Shown here: in pieces, positions 30,452 to 63,686 of the stretch
How positions within the stretch are numbered: position 1 is the first letter of the stretch
Layout: each line of letters begins with the position of its first letter
Assembly (NCBI GenBank): GCA_048939995.1
Contig: JBHLOY010000003.1
Location: forward strand, 256,001 to 320,000
Length of the DNA stretch: 64,000 nucleotides
Reading direction: 5' to 3'
Origin: Promethearchaeota archaeon
GTDB taxonomy: Archaea; Asgardarchaeota; Lokiarchaeia; Sigyniarchaeales; SOKP01
The notes under the pieces: generated by a model
Databases searched by the model: none
What the model saw: only the letters and a program-made list of their open reading frames with translations
Told to the model about the DNA's origin: nothing
Position numbers and translations under genes: made by a program

Positions 30452-30560
30452 AAATATATTAATTTATCTTATTTATTTAAATGTTTACCCTGCAAGACTT
30501 TATTAGCTTACTAAAAAACGCTCTAGGCAGCATATTATTTAATAATGAGTTTGTGATCAA

Positions 30561-30644
30561 TACACACTCATACACAAAAAAAAGAAAACATTTAAATACT
30601 ATTATACACACTTTATGATCAGAGCTACACAAAAAAACTACACA
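30561..30644 (+). promoter_or_regulatory. Five TACACA direct repeats around a TTTAAATA box
   Basis: TACACA at 30561, 30571, 30605, 30626, 30639. Confidence 0.6.
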
Positions 30645-30678
30645 ACAAAAAAAAATAAAAAAAAGGTGGAAAGAAAAG

Positions 30679-30762
30679 ATGGAAAATAGTTATGAATACT
30701 ATCAGAAGAGTAAGGCCAGAAATGACGTGAATCGAGCGTTTGTTGGCCCAATGTGTTATTAA
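30679..30762 (+). CDS. 27-aa peptide ORF
   Basis: MENSYEYYQKSKARNDVNRAFVGPMCY; GGTGG RBS, followed by T-tracts. Confidence 0.55.
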   Translation: MENSYEYYQKSKARNDVNRAFVGPMCY

Positions 30763-30853: not shown

Positions 30854-30940
30854 ATGAAAAGAGAAGAAATTATAGAAAATTGGAATCAATATTTAGATTT
30901 TAGATATGAATATATGGCATTTAATTATATTATCAAATAG
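30854..30940 (+). CDS. 28-aa peptide ORF
   Basis: MKREEIIENWNQYLDFRYEYMAFNYIIK; GGAG RBS; stop abuts the RBS of the next gene. Confidence 0.45.
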   Translation: MKREEIIENWNQYLDFRYEYMAFNYIIK

Positions 30941-30951
30941 GAGGGGAGAAA

Positions 30952-35748: not shown

Positions 35749-36564
35749 TTAGCCCAAACTCTCCCAAAATTTAGGAGGAGGGTGATTAGTGTTTTTATTT
35801 ACTCGAGTGTCATGATAACAACAATCGCAACAATTATCCCCTTGCATTATTGTTTTTGTTCTTGTTAAAGTAAACTCGGGATTATAGTTTTTTACTTGCA
35901 CAAGATCTTGATAACACATCATAGAGAAGCAAAGCTCTTTATCATATCCCTGTTGAAGCAATTCCTCTGCCCATCTGCATTTGTTAATTTTTAAAATCAT
36001 TTTATCCTTGTCAGTTATCATTATAGTTCCTTTATGGGCTTGCCATTCTTTATTAATCTTCTTAAAATAATCAATTAAATCCTCAAGACTATTATAATAA
36101 TTATCTGGATTACGTAGGCTCTTGATATGTCGAGTAATAAAATCCTTTATAAAATTGATGGCTTCTTCTCTTGAAATGACATTCAATAATGAATTTGCTT
36201 GTAAGTAATCAAAATTGGTATACGTCTTGACAAGATCCCCCACATCGACACTTACCTCTTCATCAATAGGAGAATTCTGATATTTGGGATAATTCAGTAA
36301 GTTTAATATTTTATTGATGCTTTTATTGAGTAGTAGAGGATTTTTCTGATATATTTCATTCTCGCTATCTATAGAAATTCCATAATCTAGATTTATCTCA
36401 CATTGTGAAATTACTTCTTCCATATATTTATTCATTAAATCAGGTAATTCTTTTTGAATGTGATGTAAAAACTCTGCAAATCCAGCTAAATTATTATTTA
36501 TTATTTCTTTTATTTTTAGTCTTCTGGTTGCCTTCTCATTATAGATGTACTCATCTTTTTCCAT
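35749..36564 (-). CDS. L-2-amino-thiazoline-4-carboxylate hydrolase-like (ATC_hydrolase family) protein
   Basis: KCRWAE, MCYQD, LTRTKTIMQGDNCCDCCY. Confidence 0.78.
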   Translation of the reverse strand: MEKDEYIYNEKATRRLKIKEIINNNLAGFAEFLHHIQKELPDLMNKYMEEVISQCEINLDYGISIDSENEIYQKNPLLLNKSINKILNLLNYPKYQNSPIDEEVSVDVGDLVKTYTNFDYLQANSLLNVISREEAINFIKDFITRHIKSLRNPDNYYNSLEDLIDYFKKINKEWQAHKGTIMITDKDKMILKINKCRWAEELLQQGYDKELCFSMMCYQDLVQVKNYNPEFTLTRTKTIMQGDNCCDCCYHDTRVNKNTNHPPPKFWESLG

Positions 36565-36580: not shown

Positions 36581-37297
36581 TCAGAATTTATAGATTACCT
36601 CAAAGGGTAAATCATTAAAAATATCTTCCGCAAGTTTTTTAAATTCTCCATCTAAGGCTTTATATCCCCTACAAGCATAATTCTTTAGAAGAAATTTAGT
36701 TGGTAGTAACTCCGATACTAATTTTTTCAATCCGAGTAAACTTTTCTGATTATCGTTAATTCCTTCTAAAATTACGCTTACTACGATTAGTTCTCCTTTA
36801 AATGTTTTTCTAAATAACCTCACCCCTTCAATTAAATCTTCTAAATAAATTCCCTCGTGTTGTCTACATATCTCTTGAAATTCATTTGGAATAACACTCA
36901 CGAGTTCAATTAACATTAAATCACACAAAGAACAATCTTCTCTTACTTCCTTGCGAGAAAGGAGGGAACCATTCGTTGAAATTCCAATTTTTATGTTTGG
37001 ATACATTCTTTTTATTAACATTGAAAGCTGTTTAAAAGACGCATAAAGAGTAGGTTCTCCAAATCCCGTCATCCAAACAATATTGGGTTCTCCTTTTAGT
37101 TCAATATATTCTCTAATTTCTCTAAAAATATCTCCAGGAGGATAAAATTCTTTTCTTTCAATGGTTTTATCTGTTGTTGGACCAGTTCCACAATAAATAC
37201 AATTAAAATTACATACTTTGAAAGGGTTAAAATTTATAGATAAAACTTTACCAAATCTACTGTCTTCTTTAAATCCCTTAACAAATTTCCACCCCAT
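36581..37297 (-). CDS. Radical SAM Fe-S protein, module copy 1 (intact motif)
   Basis: SRFGKVL, CNFNCIYC, GFGEPTLY, STNGSLL, GIND. Confidence 0.9.
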   Translation of the reverse strand: MGWKFVKGFKEDSRFGKVLSINFNPFKVCNFNCIYCGTGPTTDKTIERKEFYPPGDIFREIREYIELKGEPNIVWMTGFGEPTLYASFKQLSMLIKRMYPNIKIGISTNGSLLSRKEVREDCSLCDLMLIELVSVIPNEFQEICRQHEGIYLEDLIEGVRLFRKTFKGELIVVSVILEGINDNQKSLLGLKKLVSELLPTKFLLKNYACRGYKALDGEFKKLAEDIFNDLPFEVIYKF

Positions 37298-37321: not shown

Positions 37322-39862
37322 TTAATCTTCATCTGAATTTAATTCAAATTGCTTTATCTTTAATAAATAATTGTTAGCTTTCTTTAACCAATGCTCCTTT
37401 TTCTCCATTTCACATAAACATGAATGGGTGTAATCCTTCCCTTGTTCTAACATTTGGATGGATAGGTCATATTCTTTAAGATGATAGAAACAAATACCCA
37501 TTTTAATGAAAGTTTGATATACAAAAAACCCATAAGGCTCTAGACCTATAGCTGTTTTAAATAACTCGATTGCCTTCTTATAATGTTTAAATATCATTAA
37601 TATTTCTCCATACGAATCATGGTAATTTCCATTGTTTGGCTCTAAACTTACTAATTTTTCAGCTAAATCAATTGATTCTTTCTCACGATCTAGATAAGCT
37701 AAACCATAAACCATACTATTTACTAAATCATTGTCATCATGATATAATTCCATGAGTTTACTTAAAATTTCGTATGATTCCTCATATCTCTTCGGATCAT
37801 TTTCATAATAACCCATCTTAATCAACATATATGCTTTTTTATGCAATATATGCTTACTCTTGTCAGGAAACATAGGTAAAATTTCAGCTATCAATTCTAA
37901 TGCTTCATCAAATCTTTTGCCTAAGTTATACCCAAGTATCTTATTGTAGTAATAATCAATAATTTTAGGTCTTAACTCAATTGCCTCATCAATTGCTTCA
38001 AATGCTTCTTCAAATTGTCTTAACTCAAATAAAATTATTGCTTTTAACTGATAACATCGTGAGATGTTTAATTCACTTGACTCGAGAGAGATTGCCTCCT
38101 CGATTTCTTTGACAAACTTGTCTAATTTAACCTGATTTTTGTCCCATTCGAAAATAGTATTATATCCCAGTACCATTGCTCTATTCAAATGAGAAATAGG
38201 ATGATCGGAGTGAAAACTTATACTATCCTCTGAAATTTTGAATGCTTTCTTAAAATCCCCTATTGATAAATGTGAAAAGCTAAGAATAAATAAAATTACC
38301 GGTATAAGATCATTTCGGCCTAATTCCTCCAATTTATCAAGTTGTTTATCTAAAATTTCAATTGCTTCTTTCAGGTTACTATATAGACATAGAACAATTG
38401 ACTTTAATATGTACAACTCAACTTTTTTTGCATCAGATTTAAGTGCAGAACCAATTAGTTCCAAAGCTTTGTTCACATCTTTATTATCAATACAAGACAA
38501 CACTTCTTTAAATAATGGTTTAATGTCTTTGATATAATATTCTGCTAATGCTTTCAAAACTTCTGGATATAAATAATACCTTACTTCTTTCTGCCCTTTA
38601 AGAGGATGATCCAAATCTTCTGATTCAATAGTTCTGAGCATTAATGGGATATTTTCATAAATAAATCCCTCTAACTTATCAGAAGCATCTACTAACTGTT
38701 TCTCAGTTTCAACTTTATAGGATAAATATTTGATGTATTCTGGTAAAAATTCTTTTAGAGATCCCTTTAAATTTTTATGAAATAAATCATTGCAAATATC
38801 ATCAATAATATCATCAATTAAGGTATACATTGTATAATAAGGATATCCACTTAATTTATTTAGATAAGTAAATTTCGTTACATAATCGTCAACAATAGCT
38901 CGAAGCACCCGCTCAATTTTTTCATCTGACTGAAAATAAAAATGCTTATCACCATCAAATTTCAAACTCCAAAATTTAATCGGATAGATCTCCTTCTCTA
39001 CAATCTGATGAATATGAAATTTCAAGATGATCTCTTCAATATCATATCGTAAAGCAAATTCATCTGGAGAAATATATCTTGGATATGAATCAGGATGATT
39101 TATCGAGAAAAATAGTAATAACTTCTTGAAATCTTCCTCATCATCTAGTGAATTCTGCACTTTAGCATAATCCATCTTTAATACATTATTTAAAAATCGA
39201 AATTTTACATCCTTATCCTCAATACTATACTTTCTAAAGAATTCTCGCGTCTTTTTGGTGATCTCTTCAATCCTTTTACTCTCTTCCTCTAAAATAGATT
39301 GTCGGTCAAGATCATATAATCGTAACATGCGAGAATACTCTATTTTTCCCGCTTCTGTAATCTTATATCGCTTATTATCTTTCTGGACATAACTATTCTC
39401 CATTAATAGATTTAAATTTTTTGAGAGTGATGATTGGTTTATATAAACAGGTGTATTCTCCCTAAGAAAATCACTCCATTTGCAGTAACTATTATTGTAT
39501 AACATCCATAAGATCCAATGATCATAATTCCTCCTTCTTAAAACCGCTTTGGGAGGATAATTCAATCTCCTCTTTGATTTTTTCCGACGCGATAATTCAT
39601 GATACCTCTCTCTACCGGCATTTGTAATTATATAGATACCTCTCTTGATATTCTCTATATATCCTTTACTTTCTAACCGATTCTTGTAATTTGAAAGGGT
39701 TGATTGACTAATACTTACTGGATCTTCAGTAAAATGAGACCATTCACACTCATTATTATTATATAACATCCAAAGTATAATAAGCTCAAAATTTCTCTTA
39801 CCCATAGGAGAATTAGATAAAATTTCTTCAGGAGGCAAGTTTACTTGCTCACTTTTACTCAT
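37322..39862 (-). CDS. Tandem winged-helix + TPR protein, module copy 1 (start probably MSKSEQ at 39862; track gives 39937)
   Basis: Two repeats of ILWMLYNN..C.WS.F...I.QS.LS..L..L..GY...Y.IT.AG; TPR C-terminus (EAFEAIDEAIELRP, GNYHDSYGEIL). Confidence 0.88.
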   Translation of the reverse strand: MSKSEQVNLPPEEILSNSPMGKRNFELIILWMLYNNNECEWSHFTEDPVSISQSTLSNYKNRLESKGYIENIKRGIYIITNAGRERYHELSRRKKSKRRLNYPPKAVLRRRNYDHWILWMLYNNSYCKWSDFLRENTPVYINQSSLSKNLNLLMENSYVQKDNKRYKITEAGKIEYSRMLRLYDLDRQSILEEESKRIEEITKKTREFFRKYSIEDKDVKFRFLNNVLKMDYAKVQNSLDDEEDFKKLLLFFSINHPDSYPRYISPDEFALRYDIEEIILKFHIHQIVEKEIYPIKFWSLKFDGDKHFYFQSDEKIERVLRAIVDDYVTKFTYLNKLSGYPYYTMYTLIDDIIDDICNDLFHKNLKGSLKEFLPEYIKYLSYKVETEKQLVDASDKLEGFIYENIPLMLRTIESEDLDHPLKGQKEVRYYLYPEVLKALAEYYIKDIKPLFKEVLSCIDNKDVNKALELIGSALKSDAKKVELYILKSIVLCLYSNLKEAIEILDKQLDKLEELGRNDLIPVILFILSFSHLSIGDFKKAFKISEDSISFHSDHPISHLNRAMVLGYNTIFEWDKNQVKLDKFVKEIEEAISLESSELNISRCYQLKAIILFELRQFEEAFEAIDEAIELRPKIIDYYYNKILGYNLGKRFDEALELIAEILPMFPDKSKHILHKKAYMLIKMGYYENDPKRYEESYEILSKLMELYHDDNDLVNSMVYGLAYLDREKESIDLAEKLVSLEPNNGNYHDSYGEILMIFKHYKKAIELFKTAIGLEPYGFFVYQTFIKMGICFYHLKEYDLSIQMLEQGKDYTHSCLCEMEKKEHWLKKANNYLLKIKQFELNSDED

Positions 39863-39956: not shown

Positions 39957-39974
39957 TTGAAGTTCGAACTTCAA
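39957..39974. promoter_or_regulatory. Perfect 18-bp palindrome, candidate operator
   Basis: TTGAAGTTCGAACTTCAA in the divergent intergenic region. Confidence 0.65.
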
Positions 39975-40058
39975 CTGAACAACATGAAGATAAACTAAAT
40001 ATGCACTTAGTGATTATAATTTCTTAAGAAAAAAAACTTAAAAAAGGAGTTAAAAAAA

Positions 40059-40319
40059 ATGGTACAAGTATATGAAAAGCATGGAATAGAAGACCTATTA
40101 GAGGTTAAAGCATGTGTAGTAGAGTCGCTCCCTGTAGTAGAGGAATGCACAGAATGCAGAGAAAGTAAAGAGGAGCAGAGCAAATCGCGATCATTTTTCA
40201 ATAGACTTTCAAAAAAGAACGTTAATTCCAAATCAAACGCTAAAATTTTAGAGGAGCAAGTCCATATCGACAAGCTCAAGCGTGGACTTCCTATTTCAGG
40301 GAGATTTTATATGGGCTAA
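40059..40319 (+). CDS. 86-aa protein divergent from wH-TPR copy 1
   Basis: AGGAG RBS; CTEC; ends GLPISGRFYMG. Confidence 0.7.
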   Translation: MVQVYEKHGIEDLLEVKACVVESLPVVEECTECRESKEEQSKSRSFFNRLSKKNVNSKSNAKILEEQVHIDKLKRGLPISGRFYMG

Positions 40320-40361
40320 AAAAGCCGAATATTAAAAAAATTAAAAAATGAGGAGAGAAAA

Positions 40362-40433
40362 ATGAATAAAAATGAAGAATTAAGAGTATCTGATATAATA
40401 GTTATTCAGAATCCAGCATATATAATGTATTAA
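40362..40433 (+). CDS. 23-aa peptide A
   Basis: MNKNEELRVSDIIVIQNPAYIMY; GAGGAG RBS; T-tract after; paralog at 43356. Confidence 0.72.
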   Translation: MNKNEELRVSDIIVIQNPAYIMY

Positions 40434-40503
40434 ATAAATCAATCAATTTTTTTATTTTTAATTAACCATTACGGGTACATTTTTCATTTCCATTATTGAC
40501 ACA

Positions 40504-40563
40504 TAAGGGAGGGGTGTTGGATTGATTTTTTATCACTTTTCCTTTACCTTTTCCCTCCCTTAA
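40504..40563. repeat. Hairpin-forming intergenic element, copy 1
   Basis: taagggaggg...ccctccctta 10-bp arms; homologous to 55234-55294. Confidence 0.75.
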
Positions 40564-40592
40564 CCTTTATCTTTTTAAATTGTATTTTGATT

Positions 40593-41096
40593 TTAAAAGG
40601 CTGAATGGCATTCTTCCACAATAGTACATGTCGGACAGACTTTACGTTTCATATGAATAAGCATTAAAGATAGCGCAGCTATAAATCCAATTAAAAATAT
40701 TAAAGCAAATAAAGAAAAGTTCAGAAAAAACGAAATAATTATTAAAATAATTGGTGAAAAAAACGTTATGAAAAAATTGATGCTCCATTTTTTTGCACAA
40801 GTTACATGCTTCTTTAGATACATTTCTTTCCATTTATCTAAAGGCAAGAGATTCGTGCTAATCATTCCTGTCTCATCATCTGTTGTTGTTTCCTTTACCC
40901 TATAATAACAATATTGACAATGCTTTAATGGCATTGCAAAAAAGTAAAACCCTATATAAAATGTTAAATACACCATAGCAACCCAAAAGTTAAGAAATAT
41001 TATCCCTATAGTACCAAAAGCCAACATAGCAAACCTCAAAACCCATTGAACTACAGGTTTAGTGTAGGGACACTTTAAATTAAATATCATATTCAT
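40593..41096 (-). CDS. Membrane protein with Cys motifs
   Basis: 4 TM; HCQYC and CPTC....CH. Confidence 0.75.
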   Translation of the reverse strand: MNMIFNLKCPYTKPVVQWVLRFAMLAFGTIGIIFLNFWVAMVYLTFYIGFYFFAMPLKHCQYCYYRVKETTTDDETGMISTNLLPLDKWKEMYLKKHVTCAKKWSINFFITFFSPIILIIISFFLNFSLFALIFLIGFIAALSLMLIHMKRKVCPTCTIVEECHSAF

Positions 41097-41235
41097 TCAA
41101 CCTAGATTAAATTAACTATTTACAATTTCTCAATGCTTCATTTCTTTTATATTTGGTTTTTTCTAAGCAGTAATATTATTTTGGGGTAAAAACAGATATA
41201 GTAAGCTTTTAACAAGATTTTTCAATAAAAATTTC

Positions 41236-41263
41236 ATTGAACTTAGACGCTGAATTTACCTTC
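41236..41263 (+). repeat. 28-bp intergenic repeat, copy 1
   Basis: attgaacttagacgctgaatttaccttc. Confidence 0.7.
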
Positions 41264-41278
41264 TATAACAAGTTAAGT

Positions 41279-41737
41279 TCATTCTGATAATTTTTTCTTT
41301 TTAATTTTTCTAATATAGATAATCAAATAGCCCGCAGGAATTGAAAGACTAAAGCCCCATAATGGAGATCTAAATATAAATAGAATACTCCCTATTGAAT
41401 AAAGAAAACGAATGATGAATTTTAATGCTCGATTTCTCAATGGTTTTTTTTTTAGAATTTGAATCAAATATTGAAAAATTGAGGGGATCCAGCACAGGAA
41501 GAAAACTAGGATAATTATTGGCAGGCTAATGAAATTTACTATGAAATAATAGAATATGTTCCCAATTATTAATGCAATAGTCGCACCCAGCAAAAAAGCA
41601 AAACATCCTATACAAACAGTATAGTTAAATATATAAAATATATGATCATTAAAATCATCCCGTTCTGGATCATGATGTGCTAACCAAGTGAGTATTATTC
41701 TTTTATCCTTTTGAAATTCTTCTTTTTGGTTTTGCAT
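41279..41737 (-). CDS. Membrane protein (DUF2085-like)
   Basis: AHH...VCIGC followed by TM helices. Confidence 0.65.
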   Translation of the reverse strand: MQNQKEEFQKDKRIILTWLAHHDPERDDFNDHIFYIFNYTVCIGCFAFLLGATIALIIGNIFYYFIVNFISLPIIILVFFLCWIPSIFQYLIQILKKKPLRNRALKFIIRFLYSIGSILFIFRSPLWGFSLSIPAGYLIIYIRKIKKKKLSE

Positions 41738-41759
41738 CCTTCTACTCCATTATTTAAGA

Positions 41760-42143
41760 TTAACAACTTGCACAGACTGCTCCTTTTGATCCAATAGCAA
41801 GGAGAATTAAACCTATTATAATAAGCGTTATTCCTACAGGCAATGATGAAGGTAGTGAAAAAACTCCCGCAATCGTTAATATAGCTCCAATCAGAAATAT
41901 TATGATTAAAGTTAGAGTAGATGATTTAATTTTAAGTCCTTGTCCTGAGGTGGATCTAAATTTTGAAAGTCTTATTATCTTATTTGAACCGCATTTGGGA
42001 CATTGTGGTAAGTCTTCTTCTTCAGTAGCCAGGCAATATTTACAATTTTGACACACTAAAAATTTCCTTTTCTCCCCCATTTTAACTTTATCTCTCTCTA
42101 CTAGAATTTTTTGTTCAGAATCAAATAAAAATAAAGATACCAT
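41760..42143 (-). CDS. Zinc-ribbon + 2-TM protein (true start probably the internal MGEK)
   Basis: CQNC...CPKCGS, two TM, ends CASC. Confidence 0.7.
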   Translation of the reverse strand: MVSLFLFDSEQKILVERDKVKMGEKRKFLVCQNCKYCLATEEEDLPQCPKCGSNKIIRLSKFRSTSGQGLKIKSSTLTLIIIFLIGAILTIAGVFSLPSSLPVGITLIIIGLILLAIGSKGAVCASC

Positions 42144-42225
42144 TTTATAAATTTTATCTAAAAAAAATTCATCTTGAAGAATCGTCTATTTCAACTTCCG
42201 TAAGAATTTCTAGCATTGAATTTTT

Positions 42226-42253
42226 ATTGAAATCAGACCCTGAATTTACCTTC
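42226..42253 (+). repeat. 28-bp intergenic repeat, copy 2
   Basis: attgaaatcagaccctgaatttaccttc. Confidence 0.7.
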
Positions 42254-42389
42254 CCAAACCAATTTCGTTGAAAATTGGGATAAAATTTAAAATAGTTTGA
42301 ACGTTTTTAGAATGATTATTGTAAATTGAATAGAAAATTTTTTTATTGATCTTTATTCGATAACAAGTTATAAAAAACGGATTTATAGA

Positions 42390-43205
42390 ATGATGTTCGT
42401 AATCAAAATGCTATTAGGCAAGGTTAAATTTAATGCTTGGAAAAGAAAAAACATTATTGAAGATTACGTCGATATCGGAGATATCAAAATGTATTATGCC
42501 ATGTTCGGTACTGGAGAGCCAGTTTTTTTATTACATGGCGGGATGGTAGATTACACAAGTTGGTTTTTTCAAATCAAAGAATTAGCAAAACATTTTCAGA
42601 TAATCGCTCCAGATACTCGAGCTCATGGAAGGACAACAGATTCAGATAAGCCTTTAAGTTATCATCTCTTTGCTTCAGATATTTCTCAAATGATGGAGAA
42701 ATTGGAAATAAAAAAAGCAAGTTTCGTAGGTTGGAGCGATGGGGGGTGCACTTCCTTGGTTCTTGGTCTACAGCATCCTGAATTAGTAAATAAGTTAGTA
42801 TTAATTGGTACTCCATATAATATATCTAATTTTTATCCTGATATCTTTGAAAGTTTTAATAATCTAAATCCTAATAATTTACCTAAAGATTATAAATTTA
42901 TTAAAAAAGCATATGAGAAAGTAGCATTAGATCCGGATAATTGGCCAATTCTAATCGAAAAAGAATTGAATATGGCTAAGAGAGAACCAAATTTCACGTT
43001 AGACCAATTGAAGAGCATTAAAAGTCCCTCACTTATTATTGATGGAGAAGGTGAACGCCTTTATCCATTAAAAGTTATTCAAGAAATGGCTGATGCTATA
43101 CCTAATGCGCAACTCGAAATTATTCCAGGTGGGACACATTTAGTTCTTATGGAGAAACCTAAACTAATAAACCGACTAATTGTAAGTTTTTTGAAGAATG
43201 ACTAA
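42390..43205 (+). CDS. Alpha/beta hydrolase
   Basis: LLHGG, GWSDGG nucleophile elbow, GTH. Confidence 0.92.
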   Translation: MMFVIKMLLGKVKFNAWKRKNIIEDYVDIGDIKMYYAMFGTGEPVFLLHGGMVDYTSWFFQIKELAKHFQIIAPDTRAHGRTTDSDKPLSYHLFASDISQMMEKLEIKKASFVGWSDGGCTSLVLGLQHPELVNKLVLIGTPYNISNFYPDIFESFNNLNPNNLPKDYKFIKKAYEKVALDPDNWPILIEKELNMAKREPNFTLDQLKSIKSPSLIIDGEGERLYPLKVIQEMADAIPNAQLEIIPGGTHLVLMEKPKLINRLIVSFLKND

Positions 43206-43233
43206 ATTGAATTCAGACTCTGAATTTTTCTTG
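43206..43233 (+). repeat. 28-bp intergenic repeat, copy 3
   Basis: attgaattcagactctgaatttttcttg; core AATTCAGA-C-TCTGAATT is a perfect inverted repeat. Confidence 0.7.
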
Positions 43234-43355
43234 AACTCCATGTTTAAATTAAATATTGGTCTCTACAAACTCTTTATATCGGGTTTAAATATTAAGAATT
43301 AGGAAAGTAAATTTTTCTCATTTCGATAAAAAATTAAAAAGTGAGGAGAAAGAGT

Positions 43356-43427
43356 ATGAATAAAGAAGGAAGAAAAAAGTCACCCAAGATAGTGGTTATT
43401 TATAATCCCGCATATATAATTTACTAA
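43356..43427 (+). CDS. 23-aa peptide B
   Basis: MNKEGRKKSPKIVVIYNPAYIIY; GAGGAG RBS; own TTTATAT box at about 43273; T-tract after. Confidence 0.72.
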   Translation: MNKEGRKKSPKIVVIYNPAYIIY

Positions 43428-43544
43428 TCAAATTTTTTTACTTTTTTTAAATTCATCATGAATTTCACGGGTACTATATTTTTAAAAGTGAAACTATCTA
43501 TATTTTAATATAAACTTAATTTAACTTTAAAGTGGAGGGTAAAA

Positions 43545-44267
43545 ATGGTAAATAATTATTATTTAAAAAATAAAGTAAAATTAACTACTCAATTTGAAAA
43601 GTATTTACATATATCAAAAGAATTATTGCTAAAGAAATTCAATGAACTGGAAATAGAAGAGATTTTTAATAAAATGCGAAATGAATATGAGAGTCTAATC
43701 CCAGAAATACCATATATCGGGGGTAAGAAAAATCCTTCCACACCTATGCTGATAGATTGTGTTGCTATGCTAGTATTTTTTCGCATTCTTGAACAAGCAG
43801 GGGTGACCTACCGTGAAATTGGGGAATTTAGTTATGAATTTTGGGAAAAGGTAAACGGGATAAGAGTCCATAAATTAGAAAAAGCAGGTCAAAATCCTGT
43901 AGATCAATATTTTAACGACACTTATATCAATTTTAATAAAAGTTACGCAAAAACAACACAACTAAAAGAATATCCAGACGATTTTGTTATGGAGTTTGTA
44001 GAAGGCGATGGTAAAACATTTGATTACGGTTATACTTTTACGGAATGTGGAATTCATAAAGTTTTTAAAAAGTTAGGGGCTGAGAAGTACGTTCCCTTCT
44101 TATGCTTGTCCGATTTTGCTCAGGCTAATATATTTGGATATGGATTTACACGAACTCAAACTATTGGGAATGGTGCTCTATTATGCGACCATCGATTTTT
44201 AAAAAAGGGGTCAACTCCACGAGCTTGGCCTCCAGATAATCTGCAAGAATTTAAGATGAAATTATAG
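43545..44267 (+). CDS. ATC_hydrolase-family protein
   Basis: IPYIGGKKN, TECGI, LCLSD, TRTQTIGNGALLCDHRF. Confidence 0.8.
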   Translation: MVNNYYLKNKVKLTTQFEKYLHISKELLLKKFNELEIEEIFNKMRNEYESLIPEIPYIGGKKNPSTPMLIDCVAMLVFFRILEQAGVTYREIGEFSYEFWEKVNGIRVHKLEKAGQNPVDQYFNDTYINFNKSYAKTTQLKEYPDDFVMEFVEGDGKTFDYGYTFTECGIHKVFKKLGAEKYVPFLCLSDFAQANIFGYGFTRTQTIGNGALLCDHRFLKKGSTPRAWPPDNLQEFKMKL

Positions 44268-55104: not shown

Positions 55105-55233
55105 ATTTTAAAGCGAAAATGGATTACTTTATAACTTTATCATTTTGAAAATCAAAGCAAAAATCGGTCTCTATAAAATCTTTATATTGAAGATAATTCT
55201 AAAAAATTAAGAAAAGTTTTTCATTTCCATATT

Positions 55234-55294
55234 TTAAGAGAGGGTATTGGATTGGTCTTTTATTAACTTCTTCTTTAATTTTTCCCTCCCTTAA
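55234..55294. repeat. Hairpin-forming intergenic element, copy 2
   Basis: ttaagagaggg...ccctcccttaa. Confidence 0.75.
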
Positions 55295-56257: not shown

Positions 56258-56914
56258 TTAAAATCTAAATGACACCTTGAATGGAAGATCGTGAAAAATC
56301 TCTTTAAGTTTGGTCTTAAATTCATCAGAGACTGACTCTAAATCTTTACCTGTAAAAACATTTACTGAAAAATGATCTGGGGTAATCTCTAGTAAATATT
56401 TCTTCAAGTCTCGAACTGTATCTAAATCATCATTTACTCCCTTGAAAAACATAGTATAAATTCTAAAATTCCCTTTAAATTCTTTTCTAAAAATTCTAAT
56501 TCCCTTTAAAATTTCTTGAACGTTAAAGAAATCAAAACAAATGCAAGATTTATGAAAATTCGAAGGAGTAACAGAATTTAAGTTAATTACTATTAAATCA
56601 CATATCAAAAGTGCCTTTCGCACTTTTTCATAATTAAAAAGAGAACAATTAATATAAACTCCCATTTTCTGATTCGGAAAACTCTCCTTAATCTTATTAA
56701 GTAAGCGATTGAATCCAAAAAATAGGTTGATATCATTAATGCCTTTTAACCAGATGTAATCGGGACTTTCCTTTTTAAGAAAATAATCCTTTAACTCACT
56801 AAATATCTCTTCAGTGGGATAATACGGAATCTGATTATCAACATAATCAAAATCTACCGGTAAAACCTTCCCAAATTTAGAACTTGTTTGGAGTTCTTTT
56901 AAATGCAGATACAA
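56258..56914 (-). CDS. Radical-SAM-fold protein lacking CxxxCxxC, module copy 2
   Basis: Aligns by eye with 36581-37297 (SKFGKVL, YP..IF.E, GI..FRK.FKG, GVND, DLPFKV) but lacks the cluster loop. Confidence 0.82.
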   Translation of the reverse strand: MYLHLKELQTSSKFGKVLPVDFDYVDNQIPYYPTEEIFSELKDYFLKKESPDYIWLKGINDINLFFGFNRLLNKIKESFPNQKMGVYINCSLFNYEKVRKALLICDLIVINLNSVTPSNFHKSCICFDFFNVQEILKGIRIFRKEFKGNFRIYTMFFKGVNDDLDTVRDLKKYLLEITPDHFSVNVFTGKDLESVSDEFKTKLKEIFHDLPFKVSFRF

Positions 56915-60159: not shown

Positions 60160-60528
60160 ATGAGCCAAAATGTCGCGATATCAAGATATACAGATTCATT
60201 AGCAGCTGTTGAAACCATTCTTGAAGATTATTGGAAACCTAAAATTATCCCTCTTGAAAGTTTGGAACAGAAGCCTAAAACTAAAGAAAATCTGCATGAT
60301 ACGATTGCGGCTCAAAAAAGTCTTACGTACACTATTACGTTAAATGTGACTATTTTAGTGAGTTCAATTGGAGGGCTCTTACTGTTGATAACAATTAGCC
60401 CGTTATTAATACCCTTTAATATAATAATAATAATGGCATTTGCATTGGTCCAAGCTTTAGTTATAATAAAAAGCGAGACTGAATGTATTATGAAAAAAAT
60501 TAAGAAGAGGATGAGTAGGACAAAATGA
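60160..60528 (+). CDS. 122-aa 2-TM protein divergent from wH-TPR copy 2
   Basis: Polar N-terminus, two TM helices, basic tail. Confidence 0.7.
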   Translation: MSQNVAISRYTDSLAAVETILEDYWKPKIIPLESLEQKPKTKENLHDTIAAQKSLTYTITLNVTILVSSIGGLLLLITISPLLIPFNIIIIMAFALVQALVIIKSETECIMKKIKKRMSRTK

Positions 60529-60653
60529 ATGAAAATAGTAAGGATGTCTTATATAAGGTCACTTATGGCGTTATAACTCTTGCTACTATTGTTATAGCCG
60601 TCTATAGTTTAATATTTTTTATTGATTCATTAATGATTGCTTTTTCAAGTTAA
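60525..60653 (+). CDS. 42-aa single-TM peptide
   Basis: MNENSKDVLYKVTYGVITLATIVIAVYSLIFFIDSLMIAFSS; ATGA overlap with the upstream stop. Confidence 0.55.
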   Translation: MNENSKDVLYKVTYGVITLATIVIAVYSLIFFIDSLMIAFSS

Positions 60654-63026: not shown

Positions 63027-63686
63027 TTAGAATGTGAATGAAACTTTAAAAGGAAGGTTTTTAAGAATATCTTTAGCTTTATTCTTAAATTCATCAGAAA
63101 TAGATTCAAACCCATTCCCTGTAAAAGTATTCACTGAAAAATGGTCAGGTTTAATATCCAACAAAAATGTTTTTAGGTCTAGCATATCGTTAAGATTATC
63201 GTTGACACCGTCTATGAGTATCGCATACACCCTAAAACGACCTTCAAACTCTTTTCGGAAAGTTTTAATCCCATCTAGGATAGCTTGAACATTTACTTCC
63301 TCATCACATACACAAGATTTAAAAAAAGTTAATGGATTTACTGTATTCAAATTAGTGACGATTAGATCACATTGGGAGAGTTCTTTACGAACTATTTTAT
63401 ATCGAAATAATGAACAATTAACATACACTCCCAATTTCTGGTTAGGAAATTCTCTTTTTACTCTTTTAAGCAATTCTTGAAATCCATAAAATAGTTCCAT
63501 ATTTTTGACTCCTTTTAACCAGATATAATCTGGTTTTCCCTTCTTTTTGAAATAATCTTTAATTTCAGAGAATATAGCCTCTACAGGATAAAATTGAATT
63601 GACTCCTCGTTAGATTTAAGATTAATTGGTAAAATTTTTCCAAATTTCGAATTAATTTGCATCTCTTTTAAATGTATATACCCCAA
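63027..63686 (-). CDS. Radical-SAM-fold protein lacking CxxxCxxC, module copy 3
   Basis: Close paralog of 56258-56914 (PDYIWLKG, FPNQK.GVY.NCSLF, PDHFSVN.FTG). Confidence 0.82.
   Translation of the reverse strand: MGYIHLKEMQINSKFGKILPINLKSNEESIQFYPVEAIFSEIKDYFKKKGKPDYIWLKGVKNMELFYGFQELLKRVKREFPNQKLGVYVNCSLFRYKIVRKELSQCDLIVTNLNTVNPLTFFKSCVCDEEVNVQAILDGIKTFRKEFEGRFRVYAILIDGVNDNLNDMLDLKTFLLDIKPDHFSVNTFTGNGFESISDEFKNKAKDILKNLPFKVSFTF

Follow-up and report, generated by a model that had tools for sequence, protein, structure and literature searches.

In a 64,000-nucleotide stretch of a Promethearchaeota archaeon genome of the Lokiarchaeia (assembly GCA_048939995.1, contig JBHLOY010000003.1, positions 256,001 to 320,000; hereafter the window), two 23-codon frames, peptide A (40362..40433, + strand) and its paralogue peptide B (43356..43427, +), are very likely translated, real genes. 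They belong to a large, Lokiarchaeia-specific family of small open reading frames (smORFs), and comparison of loci supports a tight linkage of these peptide genes to a family of winged-helix regulators that carry a tetratricopeptide repeat (TPR) solenoid. Our leading hypothesis, which draws on layout and analogy, is that the peptides are controlled by the regulator and that their C-terminal core may feed back on TPR regulators of the family, probably inside the cell; we hold it tentatively, at somewhat less than an even chance. No paper on peptide-responsive transcription factors or on this smORF family in Asgard archaea was found in the open-access literature.

Both frames, their Shine-Dalgarno (SD) sites, their T-tracts and a shared ACGGGTAC box lie where a preliminary description of this DNA had put them. 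The motif GAGGAG, at 40350-40355 for A and 43343-43348 for B, precedes the ATG by 6-7 nt. Each T-run begins no more than 15 nt past the stop codon; that of A (40447..40459, +) resembles archaeal terminators, and that of B (43433-43448) leads into the ACGGGTAC box within the segment 43433..43474 (+). Family members mostly have a T-run in the same place. The box starts at 40471 behind A and at 43467 behind B, 37-39 nt past the stop. B equals A, a peptide of the NPAY subtype, at 9 of the 12 C-terminal positions, and the runner-up among the 177,772 stop-anchored 12-mers of the 3.75-Mb source genome reaches at most 6/12; the match is not a product of chance. Neither peptide is present in a collection of 15 billion proteins, and the earlier label of unannotated therefore holds for that collection. 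The pair had been presented as two paralogues and both are confirmed, yet the family to which they belong is far larger, and a third member lies in the source genome on contig C37, opposite another regulator paralogue.

Frameshifts or stops tolerated in relatives had been named as a sign against the two genes; the frame is intact, and all eight complete positional orthologues of A have exactly 23 codons, while the spacers around them vary (40-53 nt before the ATG, 33-50 nt past the stop). The cassette of regulator, 74-86-aa gene and peptide recurs in G010, G019, G147, G149 and G013, and three more contigs, retrieved solely by their match to the 86-aa protein, have the peptide as well, complete in two and cut off by the contig end in one. 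Selection was assessed as the ratio of nonsynonymous to synonymous differences (pN/pS), a check that had been called for and that came out in two ways. Pooled over disjoint pairs across the family, in groups defined by motif and hence motif-ascertained, the ratio is 0.55 (p=4e-4), indicative of purifying selection; within the A clade, with each variant of the eight positional orthologues counted once, it is 0.64 and not significant (p=0.18). The core codons 12-20 have a ratio of 0.23 against 0.56 for the N-terminus, from pairs that are not independent. The synonymous changes at codons 18 (CCA/CCC) and 23 (TAT/TAC), earlier taken to point to selection, are real but, being only two codons, weak as evidence for it. 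Because of this, and of the p value of the A clade, the conservation of frame, length and SD together with the family-wide pattern is the stronger evidence for genes.

The family was delineated with a motif-blind smORF caller using length, a purine-rich SD and a T-run only, with thresholds chosen after examples had been seen, on a set of 100 retrieved regulator loci plus 8 from the source genome. Of 100 regulator loci whose flanks sufficed, 46 yielded a total of 61 smORFs in the 18-34-aa range, where about 0.6 would be expected (a roughly 95-fold enrichment by this caller); its background is 30 smORFs across the whole source genome. The called smORFs encode 18-29 aa, frequently two or three in tandem, and share a layout of a basic start, three to four Ile/Val/Leu and then Asn, with the family consensus IIIxNxxY. 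Of 60 motif-blind peptides, 36 contain N-x-x-Y/F, where shuffled sequences gave a mean of 11.8 and a maximum of 23. The peptides are hydrophilic overall (median grand average of hydropathy -0.63, longest hydrophobic run 4); by hydropathy only, they have no Sec-type signal region and none of the hydrophobicity of streptococcal SHP pheromones, though a dedicated transporter might export them. The linkage to winged-helix/TPR genes that the preliminary description proposed to check is also borne out by a pattern scan of metagenomes, in which only 3 of 56 matches were genuine smORFs, all three opposite such a regulator. The other 53 were chance matches, off-frame inside other genes or without a start, as were loose matches to NPAYxxY before a stop in other genera (L001, L007-L012, L016, L020-L023, L028), which were off-frame or startless. 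Peptides are commoner beside long-TPR regulators (44/70) than short ones (7/27), in a sample where kin are not independent. Within the arrays, a further 22-29-aa subtype with a KKGP[VI]CY start and 45-60-aa zinc-ribbon micro-ORFs recur (L111, L113, L121, L239, L091).

The regulator facing A (37322..39862, −; ATG at 39862, about 500 nt from A) has 846 aa and, from Pfam, an AlphaFold2 model and fold searches, consists of two PadR/MarR-like winged helices, two more winged-helix-like domains and a TPR solenoid at about 433-845. The model (predicted local distance difference test 85) places winged helices at 25-93 and 113-182 and the solenoid from about 433. Pfam assigns HTH_45/HTH_34 to the N-terminus, whose first two domains match PadR/MarR-type DNA-binding domains with Z 9-10. 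Fold matches of the solenoid are led by OGT, BBS4 and Pins (Z 21-25), with RapI (Z 20.7, root-mean-square deviation 7.6, 318 aligned) and PlcR (Z 15.9, 5.0, 205 aligned) ranking below them, and it is therefore a generic TPR solenoid. A Foldseek search with the N-terminal 410 aa returned nothing at E<=0.001; human RPC62, its top row (E 1.3e-3, TM 0.16), shares tandem winged helices only. No NTPase domain was found by Pfam or in the model, and in the ESM Atlas neither the regulator N-terminus nor the 86-aa protein had a usable match, only a Promethearchaeota hypothetical cluster appearing by structure. The source genome holds eight paralogues of the regulator, and 104 of the family's 135 genomes carry homologues. 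A phylum sample yielded the regulator in 56 of 68 family genomes, with one weak match among 232 others; it is nearly confined to one Lokiarchaeia family. Regulators are 53-68% identical in the winged-helix region and 29-39% in the TPR region, where repeat number and length vary. The receptor tree used below is a quick IQ-TREE reconstruction with support from the SH-like approximate likelihood ratio test only (residues 1-400, 97 rows); it omits L132 and L146, whose starts were mis-set, and loci with less than 700 nt upstream.

What faces the regulators is diverse. Regulator copy 2 in the window faces 122-aa and 42-aa probable membrane proteins (60160-60528 and 60525-60653, +) instead of soluble peptides, and short-TPR or truncated paralogues of G000 (C38:11811, C38:16791, C17:231263) stand opposite secreted-looking proteins, not peptides. 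In one regulator clade (L072, L074, L075, L082, L132, L133) the facing gene encodes 245 aa and by eye resembles a histidine-kinase catalytic module; a 280-aa gene comes next, and a GTPase gene stands behind the regulator. Genes for Rab-like small GTPases were seen close to 32 of 97 regulator loci (L061-L160 and the source genome's own C1 paralogue), 22 of the 46 without peptides and 10 of the 51 with them.

Between the regulator and the small-gene unit, an 18-bp palindrome (39957..39974) is the probable operator, part of an array of GAAGTTC/GAACTTC half-sites between divergent promoters. GAACTTC occurs in 51 of 105 regulator intergenic regions against 2.6 expected, and operator words reach 2.2 per 200 nt against 0.26. 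The half-sites lie upstream of a TATA-like box, AAACTATATA, in these regions, and AACTATA is found in 57 of the 105 (5.6 expected); the putative promoter of the small-gene unit, with its B recognition element and TATA-like box (39992..40003, +), fits this family consensus. A scan for sigma-70 promoters, ill-suited to archaea, stayed at chance level. The first gene of the unit (40059..40319, +) encodes 86 aa and belongs to a 70-100-aa family in which alignment shows a variable N-terminus and about 30 conserved C-terminal residues; it has 36 homologues, the named ones being hypothetical proteins of Asgard metagenome-assembled genomes (MAGs), and two more copies lie near regulator paralogues in the source genome. 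A is the second gene, opposite the regulator across the palindrome. The divergent arrangement described earlier thus stands for A and does not extend to B, which lies outside the regulator operon and lacks an operator array upstream. The general layout is regulator, operator array, then a 70-100-aa gene and one to three peptides of 20-29 aa, each peptide with its own SD and T-tract.

On the feedback hypothesis, the regulator would bind the GAAGTTC repeats and control its own gene as well as the peptide unit. The peptide would work through its C-terminal half, in which a short hydrophobic beta-strand runs into an N-x-x-aromatic turn, and the basic N-terminus would be a loosely constrained spacer. 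This core would most likely dock on the TPR solenoid of the neighbouring regulator or of a paralogue and shift its DNA binding, closing a feedback loop, and B would be a later mosaic copy making the same core from a second promoter. As the peptides have no export signal or hydrophobic region, they probably act in the cytoplasm. We count in favour of this hypothesis the evidence for coding, the smORF linkage, the enrichment of operator and TATA words, the faster divergence of the TPR than of the winged-helix region, the higher frequency of peptides beside long-TPR regulators, the established binding of nearby-encoded peptides by RRNPPA receptors, the regulator being the only steady neighbour, and the conserved strand plus turn, as in a docking motif. 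Several observations weigh against it. Within the A clade by itself, selection does not reach significance, and in one orthologue NPAY has become NPIH. Peptide similarity is correlated no more closely with the TPR than with the winged-helix region (partial rho 0.08 against 0.07), with a correlation near zero among distant pairs and none beyond kinship, and NPAY peptides stand beside two regulator clades whose TPR regions are 33% identical. At 46/97 regulator loci no peptide was classified, and what lies opposite is a gene for a secreted protein or a GTPase, or another gene. Conversely, some family peptides head units with an ACACA-repeat promoter and no such regulator nearby: 3 of 14 profile matches outside the training set lie behind this promoter ahead of a bactofilin-like operon, and another 3 have the family promoter without a regulator within 1.5 kb. 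Co-folding of the TPR domain (425-846, with alignment) with A lengthened by seven upstream in-frame codons to 30 residues gave a score of 0.01, the mark being 0.32, and counts neither way.

A different target is a serious rival, because peptides do not track the TPR, nearly half of the regulator loci are peptide-less and some peptides occur without a regulator; we regard it as possible, if on the unlikely side. The peptides would then be real outputs of the regulator acting on another protein or on other cells, as a strand-plus-NxxY docking motif for another partner or as small antimicrobials, and the TPR domain would sense the 70-100-aa protein, a GTPase or a metabolite. The second promoter type, arrays in which three different subtypes follow each other in constant order next to a single regulator, the many regulators with non-peptide targets and the Rab-like GTPases near a third of the loci all fit such a role, and the core resembles the NPxY/NxxY ligands of PTB and FERM domains, which we take as a lead only. 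No other gene, however, co-occurs consistently with the peptides: a gene for a Mef-like transporter of the major facilitator superfamily (MFS) is found at only 7 of 51 peptide loci, and the association with GTPases is negative, for which reason we rejected a GTPase as the peptide target. Two narrower ideas were also dropped, agmatidine/AUA sensing because the Ile codons of the family are mixed (ATA 86, ATT 85, ATC 35) and a proteasome HbYX motif because Tyr is usually the last residue and not the penultimate one.

Behind A lies a 3' element (40470..40561, +) made of the ACGGGTAC box, a TTTTCATTTCC segment and a 10-bp GC-rich stem (40505-40561), possibly a small RNA or a terminator. Its pattern occurs in 7 of 135 genomes, always downstream of an NPAY-type peptide; consensus folds contained no compensatory pairs and Rfam gave no match. 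Copies of this pyrimidine-rich element of about 90 nt, found behind NPAY peptides and also standing alone with their own promoter-like block, are at 40470-40561, 55210-55294, L030:875-975 (−) and near 4328 in L275. Its 3' arm is conserved beyond pairing needs and is anti-SD-like. The hairpin, the T-run close behind each peptide, and the Mef-like MFS gene 3' of several loci would suit cis-acting leader peptides whose translation controls, as in attenuation, read-through past the hairpin or T-tract to the genes beyond, and Ile/Val runs recall ilv leaders. We nevertheless judge attenuation quite unlikely: only 21 of 49 loci have a co-oriented gene within 450 nt past the last peptide, these genes are mutually unrelated, A is followed by a convergent gene, the Ile codons are mixed, and tandem arrays end without a downstream gene. 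That the peptides are type I toxins, with the hairpin as antitoxin or fold-back inhibitor, is very unlikely: small tandem ORFs and an element with an anti-SD-like arm, stand-alone copies included, would fit such a system, but the peptides have no hydrophobic segment of transmembrane length, pairing of the arm is much stronger within its own stem (-18 to -19.5 kcal/mol) than with the peptide SD (-6 to -10), and the element is restricted to the NPAY clade.

The preliminary description had also offered the peptides as leader-plus-core substrates of the radical SAM enzyme encoded behind the regulator (36581..37297, −; 238 aa), and this idea finds no support here. Pfam recognises only Radical_SAM (24-184) in the product, in which no SPASM/twitch domain, no RRE and no NCBIfam maturase above cut-off were found. 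All five A-clade loci on the tree have an intact gene behind the regulator, and the peptide core holds Tyr residues, as a ribosomally synthesised and post-translationally modified peptide (RiPP) might. Among 51 peptide loci, however, an enzyme with intact CxxxCxxC is present at 5, a motif-less one at 6, and none was found within the fetched flanks at 40; the gene is on the opposite strand to the peptide; and conservation is weaker in the N-terminus of the peptide, the reverse of what a leader that binds an enzyme would show. The paralogues behind regulator copies 2 and 3 (56258-56914 and 63027-63686, −) lack CxxxCxxC, and the first, the one that was run against Pfam, had no match; both have probably lost enzyme activity while staying with the regulator. 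The enzyme at 36581-37297 is linked in the A clade and is probably not the maturase of the peptide, and RiPP precursors are a highly improbable reading of the family. Equally improbable are non-functional by-products of A-rich, SD-like repeats, since, although A-rich sequence can yield Lys-rich starts and A-clade selection is not significant, exact frame and length are kept against variable spacers, smORFs are enriched about 95-fold, NxxY/F exceeds shuffles and pooled selection is purifying.

The feedback hypothesis invites comparison with bacterial peptide-receptor systems. As in Rgg/SHP and ComR/ComS, a peptide gene of about 20-25 codons adjoins and diverges from a DNA-binding TPR-type regulator, and the peptides are missed by annotation, have a basic N-terminus and a conserved C-terminal core, and evolve fast. 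Rgg/ComR regulators carry one Xre-type helix-turn-helix (HTH) in about 280 aa, and SHPs have a Gly-Gly core. Here, by contrast, the regulators have four winged helices in 630-1000 aa, the peptides are hydrophilic and end mostly in F/Y/R, and tandem arrays of different peptides come with an extra 70-100-aa gene in an archaeal host. The likeness to SHPs drawn earlier is therefore right on size and divergent position and fails on hydrophobicity and on the DI(I/L)IIVGG core: the DIIV of A runs into NPAY and is not kept in B, which has Lys at the Asp position, or in the family. SHPs are known for their small size and for export by PptAB (PMC9765709). The RRNPPA receptors, whose TPR cores bind peptides encoded nearby (PMC12700828, PMC9765709), are described from Bacillota and their mobile elements (PMC12700828). 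With these (Rap/Phr, NprR/NprX, PlcR/PapR, PrgX, AimR/AimP) the present system has in common a TPR solenoid joined to a DNA-binding module at the N-terminus, multiple paralogous receptor-peptide loci in a genome, peptides and receptors that occur as orphans, and a small gene adjoining the receptor, here at 46 of 100 loci. It differs in having winged helices in place of an Xre-type HTH, a three-helix bundle or no such domain, in the absence of a signal-peptide h-region, and in its kin genomes, which are Promethearchaeota/Lokiarchaeia MAGs and not Bacillota. Given the winged helices, the lack of an export signal and of an SHP core, and the archaeal host, the system is RRNPP-like in layout and not a member. 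We think it unlikely that it forms an Asgard peptide-signal transcription system evolved independently of bacterial RRNPP, with 2-10 winged-helix/TPR receptors per genome reading a diversified set of 20-29-aa peptides that leave by a non-Sec route (for example a Mef-like MFS or ABC exporter) to act between cells. Archaeal STAND regulators of the PH0952/MalT type are likewise reported to join DNA binding to a TPR sensor (PMC6468293); unlike these, the Asgard regulator has no NTPase domain that we could find. Radical SAM RiPPs of the mycofactocin and streptide types resemble the A locus in having a short Tyr peptide near a radical SAM gene and differ from it in domain content, strand and family-wide linkage. 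Streptide precursors are themselves under Rgg/SHP control.

B has a history of its own. The block upstream of it (43252..43325, +), promoter-like and common to stand-alone hairpin units but not to the A unit, also precedes hairpins at 55160 in the window, in G019 and in L275. Downstream, the T-tract and ACGGGTAC box are kept and the hairpin is absent. An ATC_hydrolase-family gene lies 3' of B (43545), and in G010 the same gene lies 3' of peptide A and its hairpin; from this placement we conclude that B, with some 3 kb of genes, represents a rearrangement, which among the genomes examined appears in the source genome alone. No second peptide copy was present in the loci of close relatives or in their genomes searched. 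Over codons 4-11 of B, an alignment with compensating indels scores 91 against 78 ungapped, which suggests that the N-terminal third was probably re-written by such indels while the C-terminal core was kept in frame. In sequence terms B is a fast-diverged mosaic copy with a different promoter.

There are now dozens of natural variants of the peptide to work with, alongside their candidate receptors and a candidate operator, and tests of binding and DNA shift are feasible with synthetic peptide and recombinant protein, without culture of the host. Should the peptides bind TPR regulators, archaea near the eukaryotic ancestor would hold a convergent peptide-receptor circuit; should they not, they would still form a family of unannotated microproteins, specific to the lineage and jointly controlled.

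The locus is bracketed by two genes of the ATC_hydrolase family (PF14196), one on each side (35749-36564, −, and 43545-44267, +). Elsewhere in the window, two more unannotated smORFs of 27 and 28 aa (30679-30762 and 30857-30943, +), preceded by ACACA repeats at about 30560-30650, head an operon with a bactofilin-like gene (30952), a 323-aa gene (31738) and a Mef-like MFS gene (32696); in L242 and L246 similar peptides occupy the equivalent place and are preceded there by peptides of the A/B family.

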